Below, piece after piece: positions 17,028-34,758 of a stretch of DNA of 36,161 nt. The DNA is from Steroidobacteraceae bacterium (GTDB lineage Bacteria; Pseudomonadota; Gammaproteobacteria; Steroidobacterales; Steroidobacteraceae). The notes under the pieces were generated by a model. It had not been told where the DNA came from. It made no database searches and saw nothing but the letters and a program-made list of their open reading frames with translations. A program made the position numbers and the translations under genes. The stretch's first letter is position 1. Each line of letters begins with the position of its first letter. The DNA lies in NCBI GenBank assembly GCA_035261025.1, contig DATFUG010000137.1, positions 1-36,161 on the forward strand, read 5' to 3'.

Positions 17028-19520
17028 ATGCATCGACCTGATCTTGGAACTCGCAGCATCCTGCTGGTGCTGCTGTGCTCCTGCCTCGCCTCCGGAATGG
17101 CCGGTGCCGATTCGGGCGCCACAGTCACCGTGCGCGGCGATGGCGCCGATGCCCAGTCCGGCGCCCTGCGCATGAGAGTCGATGCCCTGGCCGACGATCT
17201 GCTGCGCGTGCGGATCGCGCCGGCCGGCACTTTCCCCGAGGATGCTTCCTGGGTCGTTCCGCCCGCGCTGCGCGCGCAGCGGGTCAGCGTGCAACCGTGG
17301 AACGAGACTGATGCCGCGGGTTTCCGCACCGCCGCGCTGTCAGTCCGGATCGAGCGCGCGCCCTTGCGCCTGATCGTCAAGAATCTGCAGGGCCAGGTTG
17401 TGTCTGCGGACGCGTTGCAGGAAGCCGTGGAGCTGCACGGCCCCGCCTTTACGCTGCACAAGCAGCTGCCGGCGACGGAGCACTATTTCGGGCTGGGCGA
17501 CAAGACCGGTCCGCTGGACCGCCGCGGCGAGTCCTTCGTCAACTGGAACACGGATGCCTTCGGATTCCAGGAATCGACCGATCCGATCTACAAGAGCATT
17601 CCCTTCTTCGTCGCGAGCGGGGGGAGCGCCGGCAGCTACGGCCTCCTGCTGGACAACACCTGGCGGAGCTGGTTTGACTTTGGCAGGCAGGATCCCGGGA
17701 TGCTCTCCTTCGGTGCCGCGGACGGGCCGATTGACTACTACCTGATTTACGGACCTGCGCTGAGCCGCGTGGTCGAGCGCTACACCGACCTGAGCGGCAA
17801 GGCGCCGCTCGCGCCGCAGTGGGCGCTCGGCTTCCAGCAGTCGCGCTACAGTTACATGAGTGCCGCGGAAGTGCGCGGCATCGCCAACCGCATGCGCGCC
17901 GAACGCATCCCGGCCGATGTGATCTGGATGGACATCGACTACCAGGACCGCAACCGGCCCTTCACCACCAACAAGGCCACCTTTCCCGACCTGCCGGGAC
18001 TCGCGCGGGACGTCGGGCGACAGGGCATACACCTGATCGCCATCACTGACCTGCACGTTGCGGACGCACCCGGCGAGGGGTACGCGCCCTACGACAGCGG
18101 TGCCGCCGGCGATCATTTCCTCAAGCTTGCCGACGGTTCGACCTACGTGGGGACCGTGTGGCCCGGCCTCACGGTGTTTCCTGAATTCACCGCGGAGCGC
18201 TCGCGCGACTGGTGGGGTACTCTGTACCGGAACTTCATGGCGGACGGCATCGCCGGCTTCTGGAACGACATGAACGAGCCGGCCATTTTCCGCACGGCCA
18301 GCAAGACCATGCCACCCGATGTCCGGCATCGCATCCAGGAGCCCGGGTTCGCTGCGCGCATCGCCACGCATGCCGAGATTCACAACATCTATGGCATGGA
18401 AAATTCCCGCGCCACTTTCGAGGGCATGCGCCGCCTGGCGCCCGATGAGCGACCCTTCGTCATGACGCGCGCCAGCTTTGCCGGCGGCCAGCGCTATGCC
18501 GTGACCTGGACCGGAGACAACAGCTCGACCTGGAATCACCTGAAGCTGTCCATCTCGATGCTGCTTAACCTGTCCTTAAGCGGCTTCAGCTACAGCGGCG
18601 CCGACGTCGGCGGCTTCCAGGGCGCGCCGAGCGCGGACCTGCTGACCCGCTGGATGGAAATTGCCGCCTTCACGCCGGTGTTCCGCGCGCACTCGTCCAA
18701 TGACTCGACCCGCAGGGAACCGTGGATCGACGGCCCGCGGCACACGGCGATCCGCCGCCATTTCATCGAGGAGCGCTACCGGCTGATGCCCTACCTCTAT
18801 GCGCTGGCCGACGCGAATGCGCGCACCGGCGCGCCCCTGATGCGGCCCGTGTTCTACGACTATCCCGAGGCCTTGCAGGGGCCCTGCGACCAGTCGAGCA
18901 CCTTTATGCTCGGAGACCGGCTGCTGGTCGCGCCGCCGCCGAATTTCGAGTCGCCCGCGGCCTACAAGATCTGCCTGCCCGCGGGCGGCTGGTACGACTA
19001 CTGGAGCGGCGCGCGGGCCGATCCGCTGCAAGTCGTGAACGCCACGGGGGCGTCCGGCGCCACGGCGCAGACCGTCAGCGCGGTGCCGTCACTGGCCAGC
19101 CTGCCGGTGTACGTGCGCGCCGGCACGATCCTGCCGCGCCAGCCACTGGTGCAGAGCACGGCGGACAAGCCGCAGGGCCCGCTGTCACTGGAAATCTATC
19201 CGGGCGATGACTGTCACGGCGTGCTGTATGCCGACGACGGGCACACCCTCGGCTACCAGCGCGGTGGCTACCTGCGCCAGGAGCTGCGTTGCTCGGCGAG
19301 CGCCGATGAGCTGAAGATCCGGTTCGAAGCGCGGAGCGGCGACTTCCATCCCTGGTGGGCACAGCTGCAGATCCACGTCCACGGGTGGCGCGGCGCTGCG
19401 AGCGCGACCATCGCCGGGAGCACGGTCGCCACGCACGCGGACGCCAGGAATCAGGTCCTGACGCTGACAATCGCCGATCAGGCCACCCCGGCCGAGCTGG
19501 TGATCCGTCGGGGCTCTTAG
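17028..19520 (+). CDS. GH31 family alpha-glucosidase/alpha-xylosidase, secreted
   Basis: Track ORF 17001..19520 begins at a TTG. It is trimmed here to ATG 17028, which is preceded by GGGGGA. Signal peptide is MHRPDLGTRSILLVLLCSCLASGMAGA. The nucleophile motif is GFWNDMNEP and the acid/base region is WTGDNSSTW. Confidence 0.85.
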   Translation: MHRPDLGTRSILLVLLCSCLASGMAGADSGATVTVRGDGADAQSGALRMRVDALADDLLRVRIAPAGTFPEDASWVVPPALRAQRVSVQPWNETDAAGFRTAALSVRIERAPLRLIVKNLQGQVVSADALQEAVELHGPAFTLHKQLPATEHYFGLGDKTGPLDRRGESFVNWNTDAFGFQESTDPIYKSIPFFVASGGSAGSYGLLLDNTWRSWFDFGRQDPGMLSFGAADGPIDYYLIYGPALSRVVERYTDLSGKAPLAPQWALGFQQSRYSYMSAAEVRGIANRMRAERIPADVIWMDIDYQDRNRPFTTNKATFPDLPGLARDVGRQGIHLIAITDLHVADAPGEGYAPYDSGAAGDHFLKLADGSTYVGTVWPGLTVFPEFTAERSRDWWGTLYRNFMADGIAGFWNDMNEPAIFRTASKTMPPDVRHRIQEPGFAARIATHAEIHNIYGMENSRATFEGMRRLAPDERPFVMTRASFAGGQRYAVTWTGDNSSTWNHLKLSISMLLNLSLSGFSYSGADVGGFQGAPSADLLTRWMEIAAFTPVFRAHSSNDSTRREPWIDGPRHTAIRRHFIEERYRLMPYLYALADANARTGAPLMRPVFYDYPEALQGPCDQSSTFMLGDRLLVAPPPNFESPAAYKICLPAGGWYDYWSGARADPLQVVNATGASGATAQTVSAVPSLASLPVYVRAGTILPRQPLVQSTADKPQGPLSLEIYPGDDCHGVLYADDGHTLGYQRGGYLRQELRCSASADELKIRFEARSGDFHPWWAQLQIHVHGWRGAASATIAGSTVATHADARNQVLTLTIADQATPAELVIRRGS

Positions 19521-22345
19521 TCTTTCAGTTGAAAATTGACGGCAAATACTTTGACGGAATCCGCGGCCTTGCCCGCCCTTTCCGCCGGCAGGAATTCAAT
19601 CGTCTCCGCATAGCGCTGTGCGGCGTCGTCAAGCAGCGCGGAGCCCGAAGAGAAGGCAATCGCGAACTTGAGCGCGCATCCGGTCGCCGACACCTGGGCG
19701 GATACGAGGACGCGACCCTCCTCATACAGTTGCCGACTGAGCTCGGGATAGAACTCCCCGGGCGATCGCGGCATCGCGCCAAACTTGGCTCCGACGGAAT
19801 TGGAGGTGTGGGTGGCTGGCGCCGGACAGGGCGTCAGTCGTGCATGATAGTCAGCGTCGCTCACTGTCATGCTGTGCGCCGCCTCTTTGCGCTCCCGTTG
19901 ATAGGCATCCAGCAACTGGTGAGCGAATGTAATCGAGGTCTCGGAAGGCTCACCGCTGCCCAGCACATCCATCAGGGCCTTCTCAGCGGTCAGCACTTCC
20001 TGACTGTGCGGCGTATTTTCGGGCATACGATTGCGCGCCAGGAATGATCCCCACAAGTCCCGGTTGTGCCTCAGGGCCGGCACTGCGGTCCAGTAGGTGA
20101 AGATCGTTTTCGTGCGCCGCAGATAATCCTGCTCCAGCGCCTCGGCATCCGCCCCGGGGGCGAGAAATTGGACCTCGATGCGGGTCATCATTTCCTGCAG
20201 ATCTTCGCTCGGCAAGCGGCCACGCAGATCCCGGCCAAAAGAACTATCGGCCTGTTTGGACTTCTCAAGCAGCGGTCGGGCCAGGCTGTCGAAGGCTTCC
20301 CCCAGCGTCGAAGCGAGCGGCTGCGCCGGCACGACGCTCTCCCCAGGACCCTTCTCCAGGATCTGGGCGACGGATGAAAGCTTTTGCACCAGCTGCACCC
20401 AATTGCCGAGCAGTGCTTCATCTTCGAAATGCAACGACACGCCGTAAAGCAGCTCGGTCGAAACCAATCCCGCCTTTTTACCCGGGGCATCCACGATGAC
20501 CGACACTTCGGAGATCGTGGCGGTCCGGCGGTTCCACCGTCCGCTGTAGGGATCGCGGCGGTTACGCATATCATCAAAAGCACTGCGCAAATCAAGCCTG
20601 GCGGTCGGCGGCGGGCGAAGCCGGCGCCAGAGCCCGAGCTTGACTTTCCGTTGTGCGTCCTTATTCCACCAGGCTTCCTCAAGGTCCCAGAGTACCTGGT
20701 CCCCGTCCGGGACAAATCCCATGGTCAGGGTCAGCACACTCCTGTTATCCAGTGCCAATACGCTCGACGGTACGGTGAACGAAAATCTCCTGCCACGCAG
20801 TGACCATTCCGGGGAGCTGCTCAGGGTGACGTCCGTCAAGGCTTTGGGCAGCCACGCGCTGCGCGCGAAGTAAGCGCGCCATTGCGCCAGTGTACCGGTG
20901 TACGAGACGTCAATCTGGTTGGCCAGGAGGTGGAGACGCTCCTCCGAAATCGCACGGATCGAGGAAGGCACATACAGGATGAGTGCGCAGTAGCCATCTG
21001 GCGTGGGCAGCAACAGGCTCTCCAGGTAGAAATCCATGAAGGGGATAGCCCAGACCCGTTGCTGCCATTTTCGACCGTAGCGGTCCACGTACATCGTGTC
21101 GCTGAGTGCTGCGCCCAGAGAAGTGACGCGCACCTGATCCGTGCCGACGGGGCGTCGCAGATTCAACCCCTTCAGGGCGAGATCCATGAATGCTCTGGAA
21201 TTCGCAAACAAGGCGTCGTCCGCCGCGTTGTCCGAACGCACCAGGCGAAGCAATACGGCGCCGGAGACATTCGCTACGCTGACCGAACCATCGCCGGGAA
21301 GGTCTGTCGCCGTGTAGTACGGTGCCGTCGCGCTCCAGCTGCCATCGTCCTGCTGCTCGATCAGTCGTGGCCGGAAATCGTTGGCTTCAGGCGCGTAAAG
21401 CACGGCTTCGGAGCCGCTGCCCTTCGGGAACAGCGTATCGGCATAGGTCTTCAGCAAGCGCTCGCGCGAGGCATCTTCATGGCGCGCGATGACCGTCCGA
21501 TAGTTGCGCGCAAATTCGGTCCAGGACAGCGGCAGATTGAATCCGTCCTGGAATATGTAGGTCTGTGTCCCGTGCAGATACGGCAGGCTGATCAGCCGCC
21601 GATCATCGAAGCGCGCCTTGTGCTCCGGCGCCTCCAGGACCTGGGAGATGGGCAGCGAGTAGTTCAGGTTCTCATTGGGTGACTTGCCAATCACGATGCC
21701 GATGACGCGCCCCTGTGCGTCGAGGAGCGGCCCGCCGCTATTGCCGGGTGAAGCTGCCGCGGAAAAGCGGATCCACTTCCAGCGGCCATCCTGCTCTTCC
21801 GCGGTGGCCGAGGTGTAGAGCCCGTCACGAATCACGATGCCTTCGCCCAGGGCATTGCCCACCGCCATCACAGGATCATCGATCTGCGGCTGCTGATTGG
21901 TGTCGAGCCCGGGCGGAGCCGGATCGATCTGCACGGAAAAAACCACAAAATCCTGATACGAGGAAAACTTCAGAATCCGGTCGATGGCGTAGACCGAGCC
22001 GTCCGTGCGCCGTAGCGCGGGGCTCCCGTATTGGCTGTCCATTCCGGCGAGCAGGACATGCGCCGCCGTTACGTAGGTGTTGGACCCCAGGGCAAAGGCG
22101 GTGCCGACGGCCTGGTACGCATCCGTACGCTCGATATAAGGCAGCAACTCGAGTGGCAACGGCTTTTCGTAAGTGAGCGGATCCTTCTCCGGCTTCTTCA
22201 TCACCACTTCAAAGGTGCTGGCCCGGATGGAATGCTGCAGTTCGGGGGTCGGACCAGCGGCGCGCAGCGGACAGGCTGTCAGCCACAGGGCCGCCCCTAG
22301 TGCAGGAATCCCCAGGCGGCGGCGGTCAGCGCAAATGAAGCGCAA
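19517..22345 (-). CDS. Multidomain lipoprotein: N-terminal S1 (trypsin-like) serine protease, about 550 aa of unassigned sequence, and a C-terminal TonB_C-like domain
   Basis: Track ORF of 942 aa. The N-terminus MRFICADRRRLGIPALGAALWLTAC has a lipobox (LTAC). The catalytic triad context is VTAAHVL, QDFVVFSV and SPGNSGGPLLD. The C-terminus FYPELSRQLYEEGRVLVSAQVSATG...IAFSSGSALLDDAAQRYAETIEFLPA matches the TonB C-terminal domain pattern. Confidence 0.75.
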   Translation of the reverse strand: MRFICADRRRLGIPALGAALWLTACPLRAAGPTPELQHSIRASTFEVVMKKPEKDPLTYEKPLPLELLPYIERTDAYQAVGTAFALGSNTYVTAAHVLLAGMDSQYGSPALRRTDGSVYAIDRILKFSSYQDFVVFSVQIDPAPPGLDTNQQPQIDDPVMAVGNALGEGIVIRDGLYTSATAEEQDGRWKWIRFSAAASPGNSGGPLLDAQGRVIGIVIGKSPNENLNYSLPISQVLEAPEHKARFDDRRLISLPYLHGTQTYIFQDGFNLPLSWTEFARNYRTVIARHEDASRERLLKTYADTLFPKGSGSEAVLYAPEANDFRPRLIEQQDDGSWSATAPYYTATDLPGDGSVSVANVSGAVLLRLVRSDNAADDALFANSRAFMDLALKGLNLRRPVGTDQVRVTSLGAALSDTMYVDRYGRKWQQRVWAIPFMDFYLESLLLPTPDGYCALILYVPSSIRAISEERLHLLANQIDVSYTGTLAQWRAYFARSAWLPKALTDVTLSSSPEWSLRGRRFSFTVPSSVLALDNRSVLTLTMGFVPDGDQVLWDLEEAWWNKDAQRKVKLGLWRRLRPPPTARLDLRSAFDDMRNRRDPYSGRWNRRTATISEVSVIVDAPGKKAGLVSTELLYGVSLHFEDEALLGNWVQLVQKLSSVAQILEKGPGESVVPAQPLASTLGEAFDSLARPLLEKSKQADSSFGRDLRGRLPSEDLQEMMTRIEVQFLAPGADAEALEQDYLRRTKTIFTYWTAVPALRHNRDLWGSFLARNRMPENTPHSQEVLTAEKALMDVLGSGEPSETSITFAHQLLDAYQRERKEAAHSMTVSDADYHARLTPCPAPATHTSNSVGAKFGAMPRSPGEFYPELSRQLYEEGRVLVSAQVSATGCALKFAIAFSSGSALLDDAAQRYAETIEFLPAERAGKAADSVKVFAVNFQLKD

Positions 22346-24412: not shown

Positions 24413-25567
24413 ATGGCTGTGGACCGGGAGATTTCGATGCGCAGACCGACCATCCATTCGTGGTTGCCGCTTTGCGTCGCACTGTGCGCGGCCGTCACCA
24501 GCGCGCCGGCGGTGGCGCAACTGAAAACACGCAATGTGGTGCTGATTGTGTCCGACGGCCTGCGCTGGCAGGAAGTCTTCACGGGCGCGGACCGGAGTCT
24601 GCTCGACGATCCCAAGAGCGGCATGTGGGAGAGCGCAGCCAGTCTCAAGAAACGCTTCTGGGATGATTCTCCGGCCGCGCGCCGCCGGCTGCTCATGCCC
24701 TTCATGTGGGACGTGATCGCGAAGCAGGGTCAGCTGTTCGGCAACCAGGAGGTGGGCAGCATCGCCCGCGTGACCAACGGCGTGGCGTATTCCTATCCCG
24801 GCTACAACGAGATGCTGACCGGGCACCCCGACCCGCGCATCGACCGCACCGACATCGACGGCAACAACTATGGGCCGAACCCGAACGTGACGGTTTTCGA
24901 GTGGCTCAACCAGCAACCGGGCCTTGAGGGCAAGAGCGCCGTGTTCGGAAGCTGGACCTGGTTTACCGACGTCTTCAACGAAGCGCGGAGCCATCTGGAC
25001 ATGCGGGTGGGATCCAGGCTGCCACCCACGCCCAATCCGACGCTGCGCCAGGCGCTCCTTGAACGGCTCTATCGCACAACCACGGCGCAGGAAGAGGGCG
25101 AAGTTCCGGATGCCTTCGTGCAGGCCCGCTTGCTGGATTACCTGGAGACGAACCATCCCCGGGCGCTGTTCGTGGGCTATGGCGAGACCGACGACTGGGG
25201 ACACGCCGGACGGTACGATCTGCTCCTGGAGGCCGTGCACCATCTGGATCTATTTGTGCACGAACTGTGGGATACGATGCAGTCCATGCTTCAATACCGC
25301 GGCCAGACCACCTTCATCATCACGGCCGATCACGGGCGCGGCAGCGGCCTGGTGGACTGGAAAGAGCACGGCGTCGGGCAGAAGGGATCGGAGAATATCT
25401 GGATCGCGACGATCGGCCCGGACACGCCGCCGCTGGGCGAGCGGCACGGCGCGCCGGCCGTCGAGCAGGCGCAGATCGCGGCCACGATCGCGGCCCTGCT
25501 GGGCCAGGACTATCGCGCGGCGGTGCCGCTCGCGGCGCCTCCCCTGCCGGTGTTGCCCGGGAACTGA
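24413..25567 (+). CDS. Alkaline-phosphatase-superfamily metalloenzyme (phosphodiesterase/pyrophosphatase-like), secreted
   Basis: Track ORF of 384 aa, with SD GGGAG 7 nt upstream of the ATG. The signal peptide ends ...TSAPAVAQ. VVLIVSDGLRW, GYGETDDWGHAG and FIITADHGRG fit the metal-ligand pattern of the AP/NPP superfamily. Confidence 0.65.
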   Translation: MAVDREISMRRPTIHSWLPLCVALCAAVTSAPAVAQLKTRNVVLIVSDGLRWQEVFTGADRSLLDDPKSGMWESAASLKKRFWDDSPAARRRLLMPFMWDVIAKQGQLFGNQEVGSIARVTNGVAYSYPGYNEMLTGHPDPRIDRTDIDGNNYGPNPNVTVFEWLNQQPGLEGKSAVFGSWTWFTDVFNEARSHLDMRVGSRLPPTPNPTLRQALLERLYRTTTAQEEGEVPDAFVQARLLDYLETNHPRALFVGYGETDDWGHAGRYDLLLEAVHHLDLFVHELWDTMQSMLQYRGQTTFIITADHGRGSGLVDWKEHGVGQKGSENIWIATIGPDTPPLGERHGAPAVEQAQIAATIAALLGQDYRAAVPLAAPPLPVLPGN

Positions 25568-27043
25568 TTGTCTACATCGGCATCGAGCGTGGCTGCGGAA
25601 ACCGGAATCCTCGCGTACGGTGCCTACGTGCCGCAGCGGCGCCTGCAGCGCGCCGCGATCTGTGCGGCGCACGCCTGGTTTGCACCGGGCCTGAAGGGGC
25701 TGGCACGCGGTGAGCGCGCCGTGGCGGACTGGGACGAAGACAGCATTACGATGGCCGTGGAGGCGGCGCGCGATTGTCTCACCGGCATCGATCGCACCAC
25801 GATCGGCTCGCTCTCCCTCGCCTCCACGACCCTGCCCTTCGCTGACCGCCAGAACGCGGGCATCGTCAAGGAGGCGCTGAACCTTGCCGACGCTGTGAGC
25901 GTGCTCGACGTGACGGGCAGCCAGCGCGCCGCGACCTCCGCGCTGATTCAGGCGCTGCACGCCGCGGCTGGGGCAGGACGGCCGCAGCTGTGCCTGGCCT
26001 CCGACCGGCGCAACGCGCGAGCGGCCTCCGAGGCCGAACTGATCCAGGGCGACGCCGCGGCGGCCGTGCTCGTCGGCGCGGGCGATCCCATCGCGCGCCT
26101 GCTGGGTACGCACAGCGTCAGCATCGATTTCGTCGATCACTTCAGGGCTGCCGGTGAGCCGCTGGACTATGCGTGGGAAAGCCGCTGGATCCGCGACGAG
26201 GGCCATATTGCCCTCGTGGGCCGGACACTCGCCGAGGGCCTGAAGCGCTTCGGCGTCGCGGCGGGCGCAATCGATCGGCTGGTGATTCCACTCCCGAACC
26301 GCGGCGTGGCCGAAACCATTGCCAGGGCCGCGGGGTGCCGTGCGGAATCCGTCGCGGACAACCTGGTCGAGACGGTCGGGGACAGCGGCGTCGCCCACCC
26401 GCTGCTCATGCTGGCGAGCGCACTCGAATCCGCGCGCCCGCATGAGAAGCTGCTCATGATCGGCTTCGGCCAGGGCTGCGATCTGCTGCTTTTTGAAACG
26501 ACCGCGGCGATTGGGCGCGCAGCGCGGCGCGCGCCGGTCGCCGCCTCGCTGGCGCGCCGGCAACCGGACGAGAATTACCTGCGCTTCCTGTTCCATCGCG
26601 GGCTGCTCGAGCTCGAGCGCGGCATGCGCGCGGAAGCGGAGCAGAAACAGCCCGGCACGACGCTGTACCGCAACCGTCGGGCCGTGCTGGGCCTCCTCGG
26701 CAGTCGCGATACGCGCACGGGCGCCGTGCAGTATCCGCCCGCCGAGTTGTCCGTGCATACGGGCGAGCCCACGGCCGGAAGCCATGAGGACTATCCCCTG
26801 GCCGACCGCGCAGGACGCATCGTGAGCTACACGGCGGACCGGCTGGCGTACTCACCCTCGCCACCGCTGTACTACGGGGTGATCGACTTTGAAGGCGGCG
26901 GACGCCTGGTGACTGAATTCACCGACGCCAGCAGCGGATCGATCGCGGTGGGCCGGACGGTGCGGATGATGTTTCGCATCAAGGGGATCGATGAGCTGCG
27001 CCATTTCACCAAGTACTACTGGAAGGCCGCACCGGTCCGGTAG
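25568..27043 (+). CDS. Fusion protein: HMG-CoA synthase/PhlA-like thiolase-fold domain (catalytic residues apparently replaced) plus a C-terminal DUF35-like OB-fold
   Basis: Track ORF of 491 aa with a TTG start directly abutting the upstream TGA; an alternative GTG lies at 25589. GILAYGAYVPQRRL and DWDEDSITMAVEAARDCL are typical of archaeal-type HMGCS-like proteins. The C-terminal about 130 aa (AVQYPPAE...GRIVSYTAD...YYGVIDFEGGGRL...VGRTVRMMF) resembles DUF35. Confidence 0.7.
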   Translation: MSTSASSVAAETGILAYGAYVPQRRLQRAAICAAHAWFAPGLKGLARGERAVADWDEDSITMAVEAARDCLTGIDRTTIGSLSLASTTLPFADRQNAGIVKEALNLADAVSVLDVTGSQRAATSALIQALHAAAGAGRPQLCLASDRRNARAASEAELIQGDAAAAVLVGAGDPIARLLGTHSVSIDFVDHFRAAGEPLDYAWESRWIRDEGHIALVGRTLAEGLKRFGVAAGAIDRLVIPLPNRGVAETIARAAGCRAESVADNLVETVGDSGVAHPLLMLASALESARPHEKLLMIGFGQGCDLLLFETTAAIGRAARRAPVAASLARRQPDENYLRFLFHRGLLELERGMRAEAEQKQPGTTLYRNRRAVLGLLGSRDTRTGAVQYPPAELSVHTGEPTAGSHEDYPLADRAGRIVSYTADRLAYSPSPPLYYGVIDFEGGGRLVTEFTDASSGSIAVGRTVRMMFRIKGIDELRHFTKYYWKAAPVR

Positions 27044-27054
27044 CCGGCGCAACC

Positions 27055-28254
27055 ATGGCAACAGGCATCAAGGACCGGGTCGCAATCCTCGGCATGGGCT
27101 GCGCGCGCTTTGGCGAGCGCTGGGACGCGAGCGCCGAGCAGCTGATGGTGGAGGCCTACACCGAGGCGCTCGCCGATGCCGGAATCGGCACGCCGCAGAT
27201 CGAGGCCGCGTGGCTGAGCGTGGCCTTCGATGCGCTCAATATCGGTCCTTCGGGCATTCCACTCGCCACGGCCCTGCGCCTGAAAGACATCGGAGCGACC
27301 AAGGTCGAGAATTACTGCGCGAGCGGCACCGAGGCCTTTCGCGGCGCGGTGTACGCCGTCGCCGCCGGTGCAGCGGACATCGCGCTGGCGCTCGGCGTGG
27401 AAAAACTGAAGGACACCGGTTACGCGGGTCTCCCGGTCCGCTCGCGCGGGACGACACTCGACATGATCGGCGTGAACGGCTCCGCGCCCGGGAACTTTGC
27501 CCAGCTGGCCGACGCCTACGGCGCGGTGCACGGCGTCAAGCGGACTGACCTGAAGCGCGCGATGGCCCATGTTTCTGTGAAGAGCCACGCCAATGGCGCG
27601 AAGAATCCGAAGGCGCATCTGCGCCGGGAAATCGACCTGGACACGGTCCTCAATGCGCCGATCATCGCCGAGCCGCTGGGACTGTATGACTGCTGTGGCG
27701 TCTCGGACGGCGCGGCCTGCGCGATCGTCACCACACCGGAGATCGCGCGCAGCCTCGGCAAGCGCGAACTGGTGGCGGTCAAGGCCCTGCAGGTCGTCAG
27801 CTCCAACGGCTGGGAAAGCCAGGCATCGGAGTGGAATGGCAGCTACCTGCACACGACACGCGTCGCTGCCAGGCGTGCCTATGCGGAAGCCGGCATCACC
27901 CGTCCGCGCGAGCAGCTCAGCATGCTGGAAGTGCATGACTGCTTCTCGATCACCGAGCTCGTGACGATGGAAGACCTGCACATCAGCGCGGTGGGGCGCG
28001 GCTGGACCGACGTGCTGGACGGCACTTTCGATGCCGACGGGGCGCTGCCCTGCCAGCTCGATGGCGGACTGAAGTGCTTTGGACACCCGATCGGCGCGTC
28101 GGGTCTGCGGATGCTGTATGAAAACTATCTGCAGCTGCTGGGCCGGGCCGGCGCACGCCAGCGCCGGCAGGCGCCCTCACTGGCGCTCAGTCACAACCTC
28201 GGCGGCATGCCGACGCAGAGCGTCAGTGCCGTGGCGATCATCGGCCTTGCTTAG
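27055..28254 (+). CDS. SCP2-type (archaeal/PhlC-like) thiolase
   Basis: Track ORF of 399 aa: MATGIKDRVAILGMGCARFGERW. It has the nucleophile motif ENYCASGTEAF, the HDCF motif (MLEVHDCFSITEL), GGLKCFGHPIGASG and SHNLGG. Confidence 0.85.
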   Translation: MATGIKDRVAILGMGCARFGERWDASAEQLMVEAYTEALADAGIGTPQIEAAWLSVAFDALNIGPSGIPLATALRLKDIGATKVENYCASGTEAFRGAVYAVAAGAADIALALGVEKLKDTGYAGLPVRSRGTTLDMIGVNGSAPGNFAQLADAYGAVHGVKRTDLKRAMAHVSVKSHANGAKNPKAHLRREIDLDTVLNAPIIAEPLGLYDCCGVSDGAACAIVTTPEIARSLGKRELVAVKALQVVSSNGWESQASEWNGSYLHTTRVAARRAYAEAGITRPREQLSMLEVHDCFSITELVTMEDLHISAVGRGWTDVLDGTFDADGALPCQLDGGLKCFGHPIGASGLRMLYENYLQLLGRAGARQRRQAPSLALSHNLGGMPTQSVSAVAIIGLA

Positions 28255-28275: not shown

Positions 28276-29601
28276 TCAACTCTCCGCGAGCGCTTCACGC
28301 AGCGCGGTTTCGATCATCCCCATCGCTTCATCGACGTGCGTCCGCGTCACCATCAGCGGCGGAATGAATCGCACTGTGCTTTGCCCGCAGGACAGCAACA
28401 GCAGTCCGTTGTGATAGGCGCGCGTCAGCACCCGCTGGCACAACTGCTTCGCAGGCTTGCGCTCGCTCCGGTCACTGACCAGCTCCATGCCGATCATGAG
28501 TCCCTTGCCGCGCACGTCGCCGACGCACTCGAAGCGCTGTTGCAGCTGGCGCAGCGCGTGGATGAAGTATTGACCGACGCTGTCGGCGTTGGCGGCGTAC
28601 TCGTGCTCCACCAGGTCGAGGGTAGCCAGGGCCGCCGCACAGCACAGCGGATTGCCGCCAAAAGTATTGCCGTGGGCGCCGCGCTTCCACTTTTCCATAT
28701 GGCGCCGCCGCGCGACCATCAAGCCGATGGGCATGCCCGATCCCAGGCCCTTCGCCAGCGTCATGATGTCGGGCGAGACACCCCAGTGCTGGCTGGCAAA
28801 CATCTTTCCCGTACGCCCGATGCCGGACTGCACCTCATCGAAGATCAGCAGGATTCCGTGGCGGTCACACAGCTCGCGCAGGCCCTGCAGGAACCCGTCG
28901 GGCGGCACCAGATACCCGCCTTCGCCCTGGATCGGCTCGACGAGGATGGCGGCCACGTCGCTGGCGGGCACATTGCACTGGAACAGGACGTTCTCGATGT
29001 AATCGAGCACGGCACGGCCCTGATCGGGCCCGGCGAACAGCGGCCGGTACACGTTGGGATAGGGCACGTGCGTCACGCCGGGCATGGTCGGGAAAAAGCC
29101 GGCCTGCTGGGTGTATTTGCTGGCGGTGAAGGCCAGTGAACCCATCGTGCGCCCGTGGAAGCCGCCCAGGAAGCCGATGAATCTGGGCCGCCCGGTCACG
29201 TAGCGCGCCAGCTTAAGCGCGGCTTCGACCGTTTCTGTGCCGCTCTGGCACGGGAACACCATCACTGGTTCGCGCATGGGATCGAGCGCGTTGATCTTTT
29301 CGGCGAGGCGCGTCAGGCGCTCGTGCCAGTAGTCGCTCGAGATGTGCAGGAACTCATCGGCCGCCTCCTTGATCGCCTGCACGACGGCTGGATGCGCATG
29401 GCCGGTACTGCAGACGGCGATACCGGCAGCGAAGTCAAGGAAGCGGTTGCCGTCGATGTCCCAGACCTCTACGCCACGGCCCTTCGCCATGACGAAGGGA
29501 TAATCGCGCGGCAGCGAGGGCGTAGTAACGGCGAAATCGCGCGCGAGCAGAGCCTGCGCCTTCGGTCCGGGCAGCGCGGTGCGGATGTGCGGTGGACGCA
29601 T
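28276..29601 (-). CDS. Class III PLP-dependent aminotransferase (GABA/ornithine/acetylornithine aminotransferase-like)
   Basis: Track ORF of 441 aa. It has FAAGIAVCSTGHAHP and FDEVQSGIGRTGKMFA, with the PLP-lysine context TLAKGLGSGMPIG. SD GGGAG lies 6 nt upstream. Confidence 0.85.
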   Translation of the reverse strand: MRPPHIRTALPGPKAQALLARDFAVTTPSLPRDYPFVMAKGRGVEVWDIDGNRFLDFAAGIAVCSTGHAHPAVVQAIKEAADEFLHISSDYWHERLTRLAEKINALDPMREPVMVFPCQSGTETVEAALKLARYVTGRPRFIGFLGGFHGRTMGSLAFTASKYTQQAGFFPTMPGVTHVPYPNVYRPLFAGPDQGRAVLDYIENVLFQCNVPASDVAAILVEPIQGEGGYLVPPDGFLQGLRELCDRHGILLIFDEVQSGIGRTGKMFASQHWGVSPDIMTLAKGLGSGMPIGLMVARRRHMEKWKRGAHGNTFGGNPLCCAAALATLDLVEHEYAANADSVGQYFIHALRQLQQRFECVGDVRGKGLMIGMELVSDRSERKPAKQLCQRVLTRAYHNGLLLLSCGQSTVRFIPPLMVTRTHVDEAMGMIETALREALAES

Positions 29602-29610
29602 AGAGACTCC

Positions 29611-31179
29611 CTAGTCGACGACGGTCTGCGATTGCTCACGCAGGTATTGCGGCAGGTAATAAAAGGAACCGATCGCCTTGCCGGTATTGCCCGAGCCCTT
29701 CCAGCCGCCGAAGGCCTGGTAGCCGGGCCACGCGCCGGTGGTCGCGCCCTGCGGCCGGTTGGCGTAGGTCACGCCGGCTTCGATATTTTCCTGGAACCAG
29801 GCGATCTCGCCGCTCCCCCCATAGAATCCGGCCGTCAGGCCCAGCGGCGAGCGGTTGGCGAGCTGCATGGCCTCGTGTATCGAGGCCACGCGATGCGACA
29901 TGAGTATCGGCAGGAACATCTCCACCTGCCAGAGCGGATGTTCGGGCGGCGCCTCGGCCAGCGTCGGGCGCACAAAGAACCCTTGAGCCTGTTCTCCGTC
30001 GCGCAGTTGCTCACCGCCGCACAGCACGCGAGCGCCCGCGGCGCGCAGCTGCGTCACGTAGCGCGCATAGCTATCGTAGCCGTTCTGCGTGGTGACCGGT
30101 CCCAGCCAGTTGTCCTTCAGCGCCGGATCGCCGATGCGAAGCGCCGCGACCCGCTGCACGATTTTTTCATGCAGGGCCTCGGCGACGTCGCGGTGCACGT
30201 AGAGGCGCGAGAGCGCGGAGCATTTCTGGCCGCCCATGCCAAAGGCGGAGCGGACGATACCGGTGGCCGCGCGCTCCAGATCGGCCGCCGCCGTGACGAT
30301 GCAGGCGTTCTTGCCACCCATTTCGGCGATGCAGGGCCGGGGAATCCGTCCCGCCTGGAGTGAGCGCACGATGCCCATGCCCACTTCGTACGAACCGGTG
30401 AAGGTCACGCCGGCCGTCAGCGGATGCTCGATCAGTGCAGCGCCGATCTCATTGCTGGAGCCGCTCAGATAGTTGAACACGCCTGGTGGGAGCCCCGCAT
30501 CCCGGATGCAATCGGCGAGCAGCCGGCCCGCCCAGGGCGTGACGCTCGCCCCTTTCAGGACCACGGTGTTGCCGGTGACCAGCGCCGCGGCGGTGGGGCC
30601 TCCGGCCAGCGCGATGGGGAAATTGAACGGTGCGATGACGACCCAGACGCCGTGGGGTTTCATGACGCTGCGGTTGCGCGAGACCACGCCGCTGATCGGA
30701 TCATCGGCCAGCGCGCGATCGAAGCCGCCGGAACGCTCGAAATCATCGCAATACCCGTGGAAGAAATCGGCCGTCTCCTGCACCTCGCCGAGCGCTTCGA
30801 GGCGATTCTTGCCGGTCTCCAGGGTCAAGGCCGCCGCGATCTCGTAGACGCGCTGCTCGATGAGCTGCCCCACGCGGCGCAGCAGCTGCAGGCGCGTCGG
30901 CACGCTACTCTTGCGCCATCCCATCCAGGCGCGATGCGCTGCCTGCATCGCCGCGTCGGCATCCACGGCGCGGCCCGCGATGAAGCGGCCCAGCACCTGG
31001 CGCTGGTTGGCGGGATTGCGCGTTTCGATCCATCGTTCCAGCTGGCTGTCGCGGCCATCAATATAGAGCGCGTGCCGGGCGCCCAGCCGGGTCAGCGCGC
31101 GCGTCATGGCGGCATCGAAGCCCGTGTGCAGTTCCGGCGGCGGATCAAACATCGTCGAGTACGTCAGCTTGAAGCTCAC
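29611..31179 (-). CDS. Aldehyde dehydrogenase family protein (1-pyrroline-5-carboxylate / glutamate-semialdehyde dehydrogenase-like)
   Basis: Track ORF of 522 aa with a GTG start overlapping the upstream stop (GTGA). The catalytic Glu context is EMGGKNA and the catalytic Cys context is GGQKCSALSRLYV, which I remember as GQKCSA being typical of P5CDH. Confidence 0.8.
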   Translation of the reverse strand: MSFKLTYSTMFDPPPELHTGFDAAMTRALTRLGARHALYIDGRDSQLERWIETRNPANQRQVLGRFIAGRAVDADAAMQAAHRAWMGWRKSSVPTRLQLLRRVGQLIEQRVYEIAAALTLETGKNRLEALGEVQETADFFHGYCDDFERSGGFDRALADDPISGVVSRNRSVMKPHGVWVVIAPFNFPIALAGGPTAAALVTGNTVVLKGASVTPWAGRLLADCIRDAGLPPGVFNYLSGSSNEIGAALIEHPLTAGVTFTGSYEVGMGIVRSLQAGRIPRPCIAEMGGKNACIVTAAADLERAATGIVRSAFGMGGQKCSALSRLYVHRDVAEALHEKIVQRVAALRIGDPALKDNWLGPVTTQNGYDSYARYVTQLRAAGARVLCGGEQLRDGEQAQGFFVRPTLAEAPPEHPLWQVEMFLPILMSHRVASIHEAMQLANRSPLGLTAGFYGGSGEIAWFQENIEAGVTYANRPQGATTGAWPGYQAFGGWKGSGNTGKAIGSFYYLPQYLREQSQTVVD

Positions 31180-32492
31180 GAGGCCACCGTCAGCTCGCCC
31201 AGCAACCGGTCCAGGAGGTCCAGTGCATCCGCCAGGTCCTGCTCTTCAATGACGAGGGGCGGCGCGAGCAGGATGAGGTTGCCGCGCGCGGCGAAGGACA
31301 CACCGGATTGCAGCGCCGCGTGCAGCAGCGCCTTCAGCGCCTGATGCAATTCGGGCCAGGGCGAGAGCGGCGCGCGACTGACGCGATCCCGGACCAGCTC
31401 AATCACCACGAACAGGCCGTGGCCGCCGCGCACGTCGCCCATGACAGCGTGGCGCGATTGCATTTGCCTGACGCGCTCGAACATCGCCGCGCCGAGGCGG
31501 CGTGAGCGCGCGATCAGATTCTCCCTCTGGTAACTCTCGATGGCGGCCACGCCGGCGGCGCAGCAGAGCGGGTGCCCGCAGTAGGTGAGACCGGTGAGCA
31601 GCAGTTGCGGCTCGAGCTGCCGCGCTACCGCACCTGACAGGACCACCGCCCCGAGCGGCAGGTGGGCGCCGGTGAGACCCTTGGCGAGGCTCATCAGATC
31701 CGGCCGTCCCTCCTCCCCGAAACGCTGCCACGCAAACCACTCACCGCACCGTCCAAAGCCGCTCATGATTTCATCGGCGATCAGGTAGACCTCGCGCTCC
31801 TGTGTTTTCCGCCGCAACGCCGGCCAGTAGCTGTCAGGCGCGACGATGCCGTTGGTTCCGGCGTTCGGCTCCATCAACACCGCCGCAACCGAGGCGGCAC
31901 CGTGTTCATCCATGACCTCGGCCACGCGCTCGGCCGCAGCCGCGCCACAGGCGTCGTCCGTGGCGGTGCCGAAGGGACAGCGATAGGCGTACGGCGGCGG
32001 CACGTGTGCCACGCGAAAGGCCGCGGGCTCGACCTGCGCCATCGTGCGCGCATCGCCTGAGAGCGCCATGGTGGCGTAGCTCGCACCGTGGTAGGAACGA
32101 TCGCGCGCGATGATCCAGCCCCGCGCCTTGCCGCTCGCCTGACGCGCGAACTTGACCGCATGCTCGTTCGCATCCGCGCCACCCAGCGTGAAGTACACCC
32201 GCCCGTCCGGAAAGCCGGACTTCTCGAGCAGGAGTTCCGCGAGGCGGGCACGCGGCTCGGCGCCCCAGGCGCTGGTCACGAAGCACAGCTGCTGCGCCTG
32301 CGCCCGGATCGCCTCGACGACGCGCGGATGCTGGTGGCCGAGATTGCTGCACTCGGCCAGGCTGCTCATGTCCAGTATCGTGCGCCCATCGGCGGTGTGC
32401 AGCCGGGCACCTGCGCCGCCGGTGATGGTCGGCGCGTTCCATTCCGTCTGCCTGCACCAGCTGTGCAGGACCGTCTGTGTCTCGGGGCGCAT
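31176..32492 (-). CDS. Class III PLP-dependent aminotransferase (omega-amino acid:pyruvate / taurine-pyruvate aminotransferase-like)
   Basis: Track ORF of 438 aa. It has NLGHQHPRVVEAI, SYHGASYATMALSGD and ADEIMSGFGRCGEWFA, with the PLP-lysine context SLAKGLTGAHLPLG. Confidence 0.8.
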   Translation of the reverse strand: MRPETQTVLHSWCRQTEWNAPTITGGAGARLHTADGRTILDMSSLAECSNLGHQHPRVVEAIRAQAQQLCFVTSAWGAEPRARLAELLLEKSGFPDGRVYFTLGGADANEHAVKFARQASGKARGWIIARDRSYHGASYATMALSGDARTMAQVEPAAFRVAHVPPPYAYRCPFGTATDDACGAAAAERVAEVMDEHGAASVAAVLMEPNAGTNGIVAPDSYWPALRRKTQEREVYLIADEIMSGFGRCGEWFAWQRFGEEGRPDLMSLAKGLTGAHLPLGAVVLSGAVARQLEPQLLLTGLTYCGHPLCCAAGVAAIESYQRENLIARSRRLGAAMFERVRQMQSRHAVMGDVRGGHGLFVVIELVRDRVSRAPLSPWPELHQALKALLHAALQSGVSFAARGNLILLAPPLVIEEQDLADALDLLDRLLGELTVAS

Positions 32493-32580: not shown

Positions 32581-34758
32581 GTGAGATTCCTCTTCGCTGC
32601 GACGCTGCTCGGCGTTTCCTCCCTGCTGGCGGCTCAGAGCGGTACGGAACCGGCTCTCACGGCGCCGATCCTGGGCTTCTCGCCCGCGCACGTTGCAGCG
32701 GAACGGCGCATCGAGAAGGCATTCCAGTCCATGCCCTCCCCCGCGCGGGCGCGGGAATGGCATCGCATTTTCTCCGCGCAGCCGCATCCGGCCGCCTCCG
32801 CGCGCAACAACGAGCTGGCGCAGATCGTGGCGCGCGCGTGGCGCAAACAAGGATGGGAAGAAGTCAGGCTGCGGCGCTATGAGGTCCTGCACTCGAGCCC
32901 GCGCAGCATATCCCTGGAAATGACGGCGCCCCGGCACTATCAGGCTTTGCTGCGGGAGGCGGCGTATGAGATCGATCCTGCCACCCGCAATCCGGCCAAC
33001 GCCCGCTCGTACTTCGGCTACTCCGCTTCCGGCGATGTCACGGCCGAGCTCGTGTACGCGCACAGCGGGAATCGGGAAGACTACGAGGTGCTGCGGCACA
33101 ACGGCATCAGCGTCAAGGGCAAGGTCGTCATCGTTCGTTACTCCAACCCCTACAGCTACCGCGGCTTCAAGGCGCTGACCGCTGAACGGGAAGGCGCCGC
33201 GGCGCTGCTCATCTATTCCGACCCGGCCGAGGACGGCTACACCCGGGGCAAGGTTTTCCCGGACGGCCCCTGGGGCCCCGAGACTCACATCCAGCACGGC
33301 GCGATCACCTACGACTACATCGTGCCGGGCGATCCGACGACTCCAGGCTGGGCGTCGCTTCCCGGTGCCCGGCGCATACCGCGCTCAGAGGCGCGCTCGC
33401 TGCCGAAGATAATCGCCCTGCCCCTGTCCTGGCATGACGCGAAGCCACTGCTCGAGAGCATGGATGGCCCGGAGGTCGCGCCGGAATGGCGCGGCGCGCT
33501 CCCGATCACCTATCGCTACGGCGGCGGTGTCTCAGTGCACGTGCACGTGGACATGGACACGAGCATCAAGCCGTACACGGTCGTCGAGGCGCGCATCCGC
33601 GGCAGCGAACTGCCCGATGAGTGGGTGCTCATCGGCAATCACCGCGATGCCTGGGTGGATGGCGGCGTCGATCCGGTCAGCGGCACGGCCGCGATGCTGG
33701 AGCTGACGCGCTCGCTCGGGCGGCTCAAGCACGACGGCCACCGGCCGCGGCGGACGCTGGTGGCCTGCAGCTGGGATGGCGAAGAGTACGCGCTCACCGG
33801 GTCGACAGAATGGGGCGAGCAATTCGAGGATCAGCTGCAGCACAAGCTCATCGCCTACCTGAACGTCGATGAAGCGGTCGCCGGAGCCGCCGCCACGGCC
33901 GGTCCCGAGGGCCTGCGTTTCGATTCTTCCGCAGTGGCCTCGCTGGCGCCGATGCTCATCGAGGCGTCCAAGGACGTGCGCGTGCCTTCAGGGAAATCGC
34001 TGTACGAAGCCTGGCGCGTGACGACGGTGCGCGACAAAAAGCGCAGTGAGCCGCCGGCGGATGCCGAACTCGCCAATCCGCGCATCGGCAGCGGTTCCGA
34101 TCACACCGTGTTCCTCAACCACCTGGGCCGTCCCGTCATCAACCTGGGATTCGTCGGTGACTACGGGGTGTACCACAGCAGCTACGATGATCACTTCTGG
34201 ATGACGCAGTTCGGCGACCCGGGGTTCCAGTACCACGTCGCGCTGACGCAAATCTGGGGACTCACCGCGCTGCGATTGGCCAATGCCGACCTGTTGCCCT
34301 ACGATTTCGGGGCGAACGCCGCAGCTCTCGAGACTTTCCTGCTCGAACTCGAGCACAACAGCAAGATCGACCCACAGCAGCTGCCGCTCTCAAACCTGCA
34401 CCAGCGCATCGCCGAATTCCAGGCGGCAGGCCAGAGCTTACGTGAACGCACGGCCAACGATCTGGCCGCAGGTCATGGCAACGCGCGTCGGCTGCGCAAC
34501 CTGAACGCGCAACTCATGGGCGTGGAGTCCAACTGGCTGGATCCCGGCGGCATTCCCGGGCGTCCATGGTTCCGCCACCTTCTTTATGCGGCCCGCTACA
34601 ACTACGATCACCTGGAGTTTCCGGGCCTCACCGAAGCGGTCGAACAATCGGACTGGAAGCTCGCCGCGGATCAGGCCCAGCGGCTCGAGGCAGCCCTGGT
34701 GAAAAATACGCAACTGCTGCGCGCCGCCCAATTGGCGTGGGAAAGCGAGAGCCATTGA
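32581..34758 (+). CDS. M28 metallopeptidase with PA and transferrin-receptor-like dimerisation domains (glutamate carboxypeptidase II / PSMA-like), secreted
   Basis: Track ORF of 725 aa with a GTG start and signal MRFLFAATLLGVSSLLAAQSG. The metal/catalytic motifs are GNHRDAWV, SWDGEEYALTGS, GSGSDHTVF and GVYHSSYDD. The C-terminal helical region is typical of TFR_dimer. Confidence 0.8.
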   Translation: MRFLFAATLLGVSSLLAAQSGTEPALTAPILGFSPAHVAAERRIEKAFQSMPSPARAREWHRIFSAQPHPAASARNNELAQIVARAWRKQGWEEVRLRRYEVLHSSPRSISLEMTAPRHYQALLREAAYEIDPATRNPANARSYFGYSASGDVTAELVYAHSGNREDYEVLRHNGISVKGKVVIVRYSNPYSYRGFKALTAEREGAAALLIYSDPAEDGYTRGKVFPDGPWGPETHIQHGAITYDYIVPGDPTTPGWASLPGARRIPRSEARSLPKIIALPLSWHDAKPLLESMDGPEVAPEWRGALPITYRYGGGVSVHVHVDMDTSIKPYTVVEARIRGSELPDEWVLIGNHRDAWVDGGVDPVSGTAAMLELTRSLGRLKHDGHRPRRTLVACSWDGEEYALTGSTEWGEQFEDQLQHKLIAYLNVDEAVAGAAATAGPEGLRFDSSAVASLAPMLIEASKDVRVPSGKSLYEAWRVTTVRDKKRSEPPADAELANPRIGSGSDHTVFLNHLGRPVINLGFVGDYGVYHSSYDDHFWMTQFGDPGFQYHVALTQIWGLTALRLANADLLPYDFGANAAALETFLLELEHNSKIDPQQLPLSNLHQRIAEFQAAGQSLRERTANDLAAGHGNARRLRNLNAQLMGVESNWLDPGGIPGRPWFRHLLYAARYNYDHLEFPGLTEAVEQSDWKLAADQAQRLEAALVKNTQLLRAAQLAWESESH

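Follow-up and report, generated by a model that had tools for sequence, protein, structure and literature searches.

A thiolase paired with a catalytically dead HMG-CoA synthase-like/DUF35 fusion protein in a Steroidobacteraceae bacterium: a probable degradative enzyme with a beta-oxidation gene context in its relatives

What is the function of a gene pair in which a thiolase is encoded next to a protein of the same superfamily that has lost its catalytic residues and is fused to a DUF35 module devoid of zinc ligands? This question is raised by two adjacent open reading frames (ORF1 and ORF2) of a Steroidobacteraceae bacterium, on a stretch of 36,161 nt (contig DATFUG010000137.1 of assembly GCA_035261025.1, positions 1 to 36,161, hereafter the window), which had been singled out in an original prediction made by reading the letters. 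The answer that we consider likely is that ORF1 and ORF2 are the two subunits of a heteromeric degradative 3-oxoacyl-coenzyme A (CoA) thiolase, in which ORF1, whose larger part resembles 3-hydroxy-3-methylglutaryl-CoA synthase (HMGCS), is a non-catalytic scaffold, and which in relatives has a role in beta-oxidation.

The two genes (Table 1), which have a coding-type GC content at third codon positions (0.83-0.84 in both, in a window with 65% GC), lie on the same strand and are separated by a gap of 11 nt. The start of ORF1 is ambiguous, since it could be either a TTG at 25568, placed directly after the stop codon of the preceding gene, or a GTG at 25589, and the closest homologues, which are 484 aa long, start at ORF1 residue 8 (corresponding to the GTG). 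An HMGCS-like domain and a DUF35 module are present in the single ORF1 polypeptide, as seen both by AlphaFold2 (AF2) modelling with fold matches and by Pfam, which finds ACP_syn_III_C (a thiolase-superfamily C-terminal domain) at residues 226-304 and OB_ChsH2_C (the DUF35 OB fold) at residues 414-470 (32.6 bits against a cut-off of 27.1, E 7.8e-8).

The HMGCS-like domain is confirmed by sequence comparison as a predicted dead enzyme, which has lost the E-C-H-N tetrad of HMGCS as defined elsewhere (PMC12960953). HMMER alignments to archaeal HMGCS (6esq_I) and to two PhlA chains (5m3k_A and 9skh_A), by which the catalytic positions were placed, put Thr87, Gln119 and Pro241 where Glu, Cys and His are expected, at exactly the codons given in the original prediction. 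A proper multiple alignment (MAFFT, 83 orthologues) does not restore these residues, since the Glu position is T in 78 sequences and S in five, the Cys position is Q in 60, L in 17, R in five and M in one, and the His position is P in 67, A in 14 and G in two, that is, E, C or H is found there in 0/83. The column of Asp272, which corresponds to the Asn of the tetrad, is variable among orthologues. The closest NCBIfam model is that of archaeal HMGCS (PRK04262), which ORF1 matches at 150 bits against a cut-off of 244, while TIGR00748 is matched at 99 bits against a cut-off of 353. The top PDB matches are PhlA (9skh and 5m3k, E 3e-29), the HMGCS of the archaeal complex 6ESQ (E 5e-20) and MucA (9vbo). 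In an AF2 model of ORF1 built from 62 sequences (mean per-residue confidence, pLDDT, 79; predicted TM-score, pTM, 0.84), the N-terminal 345 residues superpose on PhlA 5m3k_A and archaeal HMGCS 6esq_I with Foldseek TM of 0.80-0.85, and PhlA is the best PDB match by fold as well as by sequence.

ORF2, by its sequence, is predicted to have an intact active site, which would be the only one in the pair. It displays CASG (Cys88), HDCF (His294 and Cys296) and GHPIGASG (His344), three motifs that the original prediction had spotted and that are invariant in all the 73-74 orthologues covering these positions. Pfam identifies Thiolase_N and Thiolase_C_1 and detects no SCP2 lipid-transfer domain, and NCBIfam PRK06157 is matched at 663 bits (cut-off 403). 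The PDB matches of ORF2 include 7yvy (E 1e-49), archaeal acetoacetyl-CoA thiolase (ACAT; 6esq_A, E 5e-45, over the full length), BbsB (E 1e-37) and SCP2-thiolases (E 2e-37). The chain 9myr_A, which is labelled 'Nonspecific lipid-transfer protein' in the Sal-Shy(DUF35) entry, is matched at E 2e-21, Ltp2 (6ok1_A) is distantly similar (E 1e-14), and PhlC is matched at just E 5e-12 over residues 270-388, that is, the C-terminal third.

The second oddity of ORF1 is its DUF35 module. Its identity as a DUF35 OB-fold, already claimed in the original prediction, is supported by Pfam and by a Foldseek search with a separately built model of the C-terminal 145 residues (pLDDT 73), for which the best 21 PDB matches are all DUF35 proteins, mostly from solved thiolase complexes: PhlB, 6esq_F and MucC lead, followed by BbsA and the DUF35 domains of Shy and ChsH2, and two free DUF35 proteins, Trf (6htj) and SSO2064 (3irb), make up the remainder. 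A PDB sequence search with the same 145 residues gives no match, even at E 10, and the assignment therefore rests on Pfam, the four-Cys orthologues mentioned below and the fold search. All structurally solved DUF35 domains bind zinc via four Cys, or via three Cys and one His in Shy (PMC12329534; PMC6392133). As had been noticed from the letters, this zinc ribbon is gone in ORF1, which has no Cys beyond residue 304, hence none in residues 347-491, and which displays Asp381, Thr384, Ser395 and Glu400 (26708-26767) in the ligand columns. When these four columns are compared across the family (loci L006-L085), all four Cys are found in 14 of the 83 orthologues (two of these that were scanned, L063 and L077, both match Pfam zf-ChsH2 above cut-off), the first Cys alone is retained in most sequences, and no ribbon Cys is left in the window clade, in Caballeronia/Paraburkholderia (L038, L041, L051 and L053) and in L011/L012; outside the window clade, the sequences without any are a few from Burkholderiaceae and Sphingomonas. 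Judging from these sequences, the zinc ribbon decays stepwise inside one orthologous family, from four Cys to one to none, and covalent fusion has plausibly made the zinc-stabilised ribbon dispensable.

How widespread is this family, and is the dead domain maintained? A protein search returned > 5,400 relatives, of which the best 120 were listed, and a genome scan identified 496, of which 80 loci were kept for neighbourhood and alignment work. The best 120 of the > 5,400 protein relatives come from Steroidobacteraceae (81-94% identity), Sphingomonadales and Caulobacterales, and their fused length is ~484 aa, save for two proteins (369 and 503 aa). No Pseudomonas locus is found among the 80 kept loci, which are the top-scoring, that is, close, relatives out of 496. 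In databases, family members are annotated as 'OB-fold domain-containing protein' or 'hydroxymethylglutaryl-CoA synthase family protein'. Full-length fused HMGS-like/DUF35 proteins with ~29-34% identity are also encoded on actinobacterial megaplasmids (Rhodococcus and Mycobacterium avium; matches H24-H32), from which it follows that the fused architecture reaches beyond Proteobacteria. Two paralogous fusion/thiolase pairs in different contexts are found in Sphingopyxis sp. PET50 (L046 and L058) and in a metagenome-assembled genome of Novosphingobium (L020 and L032), which suggests that the family has diversified for different substrates. The ratio of non-synonymous to synonymous substitutions (dN/dS), computed against the three Steroidobacteraceae orthologues L006-L008, is 0.17-0.21 for ORF1 and 0.07-0.08 for ORF2; within ORF1, it is 0.19-0.24 for the HMGS-like domain and 0.10-0.13 for the DUF35 part. 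With a value of ~0.2, the dead domain is thus maintained by purifying selection. Orthologues share a median identity of 78% with the thiolase, which is 65-95% identical over three proteobacterial classes, and of 56% with the fusion. Taken together, the contrasts in dN/dS and in identity fit a catalytic subunit paired with a structural one.

The gene neighbourhoods of related genomes, whose comparison had been proposed in the original prediction, also bear on function. The fusion gene is immediately followed by a thiolase orthologue in 71 of the 74 loci with room for it, in Alpha-, Beta- and Gammaproteobacteria. The typical order in relatives is short-chain dehydrogenase/reductase (SDR), MaoC hydratase, fusion, thiolase and acyl-CoA dehydrogenase (ACAD), often followed by a family-III CoA-transferase, more ACADs and a second hydratase. 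An SDR is found upstream of the fusion in 42/76 loci and a MaoC in 39/76, an ACAD follows the thiolase in 35/68, and an SDR/MaoC/ACAD-type gene lies within 8 kb in 56 of the 64 loci having at least 3 kb of flank. The best PDB matches of the SDR are the (3R)-hydroxyacyl-CoA dehydrogenases of yeast, rat and human MFE-2 (2et6, E 1.6e-100; 1gz6; 1zbq), while the best match of the MaoC protein is a bacterial MaoC-family member (3khp, E 9e-56), with MFE-2 hydratase 2 nearly equal (1s9c, E 1e-50). In sequence, the SDR and MaoC of relatives look like a split peroxisomal MFE-2. No NCBIfam family is matched above threshold by the neighbouring ACAD, CoA-transferase, hydratase and SDR genes of relatives; below threshold, the CoA-transferase shows some likeness to 2-methylfumaryl-CoA isomerase (444 bits, cut-off 725), which is no more than a hint at dicarboxylyl-CoA substrates. 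Literature searches on the SDR-MaoC-OB-fold-thiolase operon or its substrate found nothing relevant. In Phenylobacterium, the SDR-MaoC-fusion-thiolase cluster is immediately preceded by a separate DUF35 gene and another thiolase (L004 6550-8156; L005 2941-4547), that is, free and fused DUF35/thiolase systems occur there side by side.

Biochemical evidence is available for a complex with the same architecture. A recent study (PMC12960953, Nature Communications 2026) mined 1,030 bacterial HMGS/ACAT/DUF35 loci, 1,001 of them without polyketide synthase (PKS) or non-ribosomal peptide synthetase (NRPS) partners, and chose a representative from Pseudomonas fluorescens with a fused HMGS-DUF35. In this PfACAT/HMGS-DUF35 complex, the E-C-H-N tetrad is missing from the PfHMGS part, and Cys, HDxF and GHx are all present in PfACAT. 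No HMG-CoA or acetoacetyl-CoA is produced, but acetoacetyl-CoA is cleaved thiolytically, an activity almost abolished by H294Y in HDxF. In the same study, mutation of the tetrad in the archaeal enzyme abolished HMG-CoA formation, archaeal ACAT and MucB were insoluble if expressed alone, and solubilised MucB was inactive. The fused family was read by these authors as an intermediate without mevalonate function, not yet recruited to a pathway (PMC12960953). The view of the original prediction that the pair probably does not synthesise HMG-CoA agrees with these experiments. The same cannot be said of the novelty that it saw in the architecture, which has already been published (PMC12960953), is routinely annotated and is very common.

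We propose the following mechanism. ORF2 alone would do the chemistry, with Cys88 as nucleophile, and with HDCF (His294 and Cys296) and His344 acting as in SCP2-type and archaeal thiolases. The reaction would be CoA-dependent thiolysis of a 3-oxoacyl-CoA via acyl-Cys88, with a shortened acyl-CoA as one product and acetyl-CoA or some other short acyl-CoA as the second. The HMGCS-like domain of ORF1 and its DUF35 module would fill the places of HMGCS and DUF35 in the archaeal complex, or those of PhlA and PhlB in PhlACB, whereby ORF1 would give ORF2 its solubility and quaternary shape and would close a shared CoA/substrate chamber by forming one of its walls. In relatives, ACAD would be followed by MaoC (an MFE-2-type hydratase 2), then by SDR (an MFE-2-type (3R)-hydroxyacyl-CoA dehydrogenase) and finally by the thiolase of the fused family, so that in most relatives the pair would probably catalyse the final step of a dedicated (R)-specific beta-oxidation module, a bacterial counterpart of MFE-2/SCPx. 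In the window clade, the pair stands apart from such partners, among unrelated genes, and would presumably work with enzymes encoded elsewhere.

Several points weigh against this proposal. (i) Pfam annotation reveals no beta-oxidation genes in the window, that is, over ~25 kb upstream and 8 kb downstream of the pair, and the syntenic loci L006-L008 likewise have none near it, which makes the pathway role an extrapolation for the source organism. (ii) The contact between ORF1 and ORF2 would be one deduced from gene linkage and homologous complexes, and it is also by reasoning that we infer the scaffold role of ORF1 and the nature of the substrate. (iii) The placement of the window pair in the same orthologous group as the Pf complex rests on shared architecture and motifs, not on a sequence alignment, and acetoacetyl-CoA thiolysis in vitro by the Pf complex does not identify a physiological substrate. 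(iv) The dead domain is rich in invariant residues (Ser86, Asp114, Arg120, the DFVDHFR...WESRWIRDEG block), so that, besides being a plain scaffold, it might bind a ligand or have a regulatory function.

Which other activities could the pair have? Of the four reactions listed in the original prediction (thiolase, retro-Claisen, aldolase and C-acyltransferase), thiolysis, which is the retro-Claisen reaction, is favoured, while the last two are disfavoured since Cys88 and HDCF are kept. A CoA-independent Friedel-Crafts C-acyltransferase like PhlACB/MucABC, in which acetyl on the thiolase Cys is passed to a phenolic or tetramic-acid acceptor, is suggested by PhlA, which is likewise dead and is the best match of ORF1, and by PhlB and MucC, which best match the DUF35 model. 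We nevertheless find it very unlikely, because PhlC and MucB have lost HDxF while the HDCF of ORF2 is invariant, because ORF2 is closer to archaeal ACAT over its full length than to the C-terminal third of PhlC, and because the window (Pfam) and the related loci examined contain no PKS or NRPS genes, relatives being flanked by beta-oxidation genes instead. Moreover, thiolase activity is seen in the characterised fused complex but not in PpATase and SmaATase (PMC12960953). A retro-aldolase of the Ltp2-ChsH2(DUF35) or Sal-Shy(DUF35) type, which would cleave the side chain of a 3-hydroxyacyl-CoA, would be in keeping with the fact that the DUF35 model also matches the DUF35 domains of Shy and ChsH2, with the distant similarity of ORF2 to Ltp2 and 9myr_A, and with the MaoC hydratases that are frequent neighbours in relatives. 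However, catalysis relies on a tyrosine pair in Ltp2 and on a YDCY motif (Tyr302 and Cys304) in Sal, both being aldolases with rewired sites (PMC12329534), whereas ORF2 has the full, family-invariant thiolase set of Cys88, HDCF and GHP; the DUF35 of aldolase systems belongs to a hydratase rather than to an HMGCS-like domain; and the linked SDR in relatives, as a 3-hydroxyacyl-CoA dehydrogenase, would supply a 3-oxo substrate. This makes a retro-aldolase highly improbable, by a shade even more so than an acyltransferase.

Three further possibilities concern ORF1 or the pair as a whole. In the loading modules of PKS and in chain-length factors, a Gln replaces the active-site Cys (KS-Q), and KS-Q decarboxylases require His and Asn partners. 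ORF1 might thus have a cryptic activity of its own, as a KS-Q-type decarboxylase or through a specific ligand-binding or regulatory site, since it has a Gln exactly at the Cys position, is under purifying selection and strongly conserves pocket-lining residues (Ser86, Thr87, Asp114, Ser118, Arg120 and His277), of which Ser86, Asp114, Ser118, Arg120 and His277, all near the dead site, are invariant or almost so in the 83 orthologues. Such an activity is quite unlikely, though, and the decarboxylase role for Gln119 in particular is rejected, because the residue varies (Leu, Arg or Met in 23/83 orthologues) and the His and Asn partners are missing, replaced by Pro/Ala/Gly and by a variable residue. 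PhlA, to which no activity has been assigned, has a Gly there (PMC6392133). An idle intermediate that has lost its mevalonate function and is still unrecruited, as in the published reading, would account for the lack of metabolically related neighbours in the window and its closest relatives and for the 1,001 of 1,030 bacterial loci without biosynthetic partners (PMC12960953). It is unlikely all the same, in view of the strong purifying selection on both genes, the high identity of the thiolase over three classes, the collinear SDR/MaoC/ACAD linkage in dozens of genomes and the several paralogous copies found in some. It is the recurrence of this linkage, together with an HDCF thiolase, that leads us to read the family as a dedicated degradative thiolase. 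Finally, the idea that the pair truly forms HMG-CoA for a bacterial mevalonate pathway, as the archaeal complex does, has virtually no chance of being correct: the module set is that of 6ESQ and the best NCBIfam match of ORF1 is archaeal HMGCS, but all four tetrad residues are replaced, the score stays far under the cut-off, neither the tetrad mutants of the archaeal enzyme nor the fused Pf complex make HMG-CoA (PMC12960953), and Pfam finds no mevalonate-pathway genes in the window.

If the degradative thiolase that we favour is generalised, the fused family would be the obligate thiolase of a widespread bacterial 'split MFE-2' beta-oxidation (of branched, bulky or dicarboxylic acyl-CoAs?), and fusion would have given rise to the first zinc-free DUF35 modules, a broader idea to which we give slightly less than an even chance. 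The window pair itself is a further member of a widespread and recently characterised enzyme type, typical of a very large, published and biochemically sampled family, and opens no new category; its complete loss of ribbon Cys and its orphan gene context are minor variations. What is added to the published work (PMC12960953) is (i) the MFE-2-like beta-oxidation gene context, (ii) the stepwise loss of the zinc ribbon and (iii) purifying selection on the dead domain. These comparative results speak against a pathway-less intermediate and favour a conserved MFE-2-like beta-oxidation operon, whose substrate might be identified in Sphingomonads, Caulobacterales or Burkholderiales with the help of metabolomics or fitness profiling. 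The ribbon-loss series, with four, one or no Cys, could offer a way to investigate the purpose of the DUF35 zinc site and the reason why the thiolases of this lineage have remained reliant on a dead partner.

Table 1. Coordinates of the gene pair, its modules and key codons in the window, and of the conserved operon at three related loci
Feature	Position	Strand	Description
ORF1	25568-27043	+	491 aa; non-catalytic HMGCS/PhlA-like domain fused to DUF35 module
HMGCS/PhlA-like domain	25598-26605	+	residues ~11-346; thiolase fold without catalytic residues; AF2 pLDDT mostly 80-97
Thr87 codon	25826-25828	+	opposite catalytic Glu of HMGCS (Glu82 in 6ESQ; Cys83 in PhlA)
Gln119 codon	25922-25924	+	opposite nucleophilic Cys of HMGCS (Cys114 in 6ESQ; Gly115 in PhlA)
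Pro241 codon	26288-26290	+	opposite catalytic His of HMGCS VFHQPN (Gln in PhlA)
Asp272 codon	26381-26383	+	opposite Asn of E-C-H-N tetrad (Asp in PhlA)
Zinc-ribbon remnant	26681-26767	+	residues 372-400; degenerate, Cys-free remnant of DUF35 rubredoxin-like zinc ribbon
DUF35 OB-fold	26780-27040	+	residues ~405-491; Pfam OB_ChsH2_C; AF2/Foldseek
ORF2	27055-28254	+	399 aa; SCP2/archaeal-type thiolase, predicted sole catalytic subunit
Cys88 codon	27316-27318	+	ORF2 key residue
His294 codon	27934-27936	+	ORF2 key residue
Cys296 codon	27940-27942	+	ORF2 key residue
His344 codon	28084-28086	+	ORF2 key residue
Conserved operon, locus L001	8252-18803		SDR-MaoC-fusion-thiolase-ACAD plus CoA-transferase, ACADs and second hydratase
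Conserved operon, locus L004	8256-13850		as for L001
Conserved operon, locus L086	7239-16531		as for L001

The remainder of the window, in which Pfam annotation reveals only glycan-utilisation, peptidase, aminotransferase and aldehyde dehydrogenase genes, has an arrangement around the pair that is shared only by L006-L008, the closest loci from Steroidobacteraceae. Most of it is filled by a glycan-utilisation region (286-24280) unrelated to the thiolase pair, which contains GH1, DUF2961, ABC permeases, a solute-binding protein, a glucoamylase-like and a Trp-halogenase-like protein, a TonB-dependent receptor, a LacI regulator, GH39, GH31 and GH15. A 942-aa ORF at 19517-22345 (- strand) has an unusual combination of a trypsin-like peptidase domain (residues 81-217) and a TonB C-terminal domain (865-940). 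The gene immediately upstream of the pair (24413-25567, + strand), whose stop abuts the TTG of ORF1, encodes a protein of the alkaline-phosphatase/metalloenzyme superfamily with a signal-peptide-like N-terminus, which matches no NCBIfam family; outside the Steroidobacteraceae clade (L006-L008), it is not found upstream of the fusion. Downstream, a convergent operon (28276-32492, - strand), for which synteny is seen in L006 and L008, codes for two class-III aminotransferases with an aldehyde dehydrogenase between them, and may be an omega-amino acid or polyamine catabolic module. It is followed by an M28 peptidase (32581-34758, + strand) with PA and transferrin-receptor-like dimerisation domains, an architecture like that of glutamate carboxypeptidase II.

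How does the pair compare with known systems? The original prediction had related its modules to the archaeal thiolase/HMGCS/DUF35 complex and to PhlACB, and both sequence and fold matches bear this out. The nearest counterpart is PfACAT/HMGS-DUF35, which also consists of two genes with a fused HMGS-DUF35, lost tetrad and no PKS/NRPS neighbours, and whose thiolase, like ORF2, keeps catalytic Cys, HDxF and GHx (the HDxF His is numbered 294 in both, a coincidence of numbering that is only suggestive). The window version differs in having no ribbon Cys and in lying among unrelated genes; the paper is silent on the state of the ribbon and on beta-oxidation neighbours. The archaeal 6ESQ complex displays the same three modules and folds (Foldseek TM 0.85 for the HMGCS module and ~0.75 for DUF35), with a thiolase that aligns with ORF2 over its full length and has the same Cys, HDCF and GH motifs. 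It has a competent HMGCS above the family threshold and a separate DUF35 subunit with a four-Cys ribbon, whereas in the window HMGCS is dead, DUF35 is fused and without zinc Cys, and there are two genes instead of three. The expected direction here is degradative thiolysis, rather than condensation pulled by HMG-CoA formation.

An article of 2010 (PMC2954200) had already drawn attention to DUF35 fused with domains of the thiolase superfamily and to PhlA as an inactive representative. PhlACB (PpATase and CsATase) and MucABC (SmaATase), solved as 5M3K, 5MG5, 9SKH and 9VBO, resemble the window pair in that they too have a dead HMGS-like subunit (MucA, or PhlA, to which ORF1 is closest among solved structures), in that catalysis takes place only on the thiolase-like subunit and in that the DUF35 subunit bridges the others. 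PhlA lacks the catalytic Cys and Glu (Gly115 and Cys83), and all PhlACB catalysis takes place on Cys88 of PhlC (PMC6392133), the subunit to which the original prediction had correctly attributed the active Cys. By contrast with the window, PhlC and MucB have lost HDxF and perform no thiolysis, PhlB is a separate protein with a four-Cys ribbon, and the genes lie in PKS/NRPS clusters; of these features, the pair shares the dead HMGS-like subunit, and neither the loss of HDxF with a PhlC-type pocket nor the cluster.

Systems that work in the breakdown of bulky acyl-CoAs, namely the benzoylsuccinyl-CoA thiolase BbsAB (7PXP), Ltp2-ChsH2(DUF35) (6OK1) and Sal-Shy(DUF35) (9MYR), combine a thiolase-fold catalytic subunit with DUF35, like the window pair. 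They have no HMGS-like subunit, and their DUF35 is either free (BbsA) or fused to a MaoC hydratase (ChsH2 and Shy). The rewired site and hydratase-borne DUF35 of Ltp2 and Sal are not found in the pair, whereas BbsB shares an HDCF-type active site with ORF2, and everything that characterises SCP2-type (HDCF) thiolases with a DUF35 partner such as BbsAB (CxS, HDCF, GHP and association with DUF35) is present. The last comparison is with eukaryotes, in which the peroxisomal MFE-2/SCPx system performs beta-oxidation of branched or bulky acyl-CoAs and of bile-acid intermediates. The bacterial genes are split, and ORF2 has no detected SCP2 domain and would need a dead HMGS-DUF35 partner. The likeness lies in the thiolase, which is of the SCP2/HDCF type, and in the genes for a (3R)-hydroxyacyl-CoA dehydrogenase and a hydratase 2 that are arranged collinearly with the pair in relatives.

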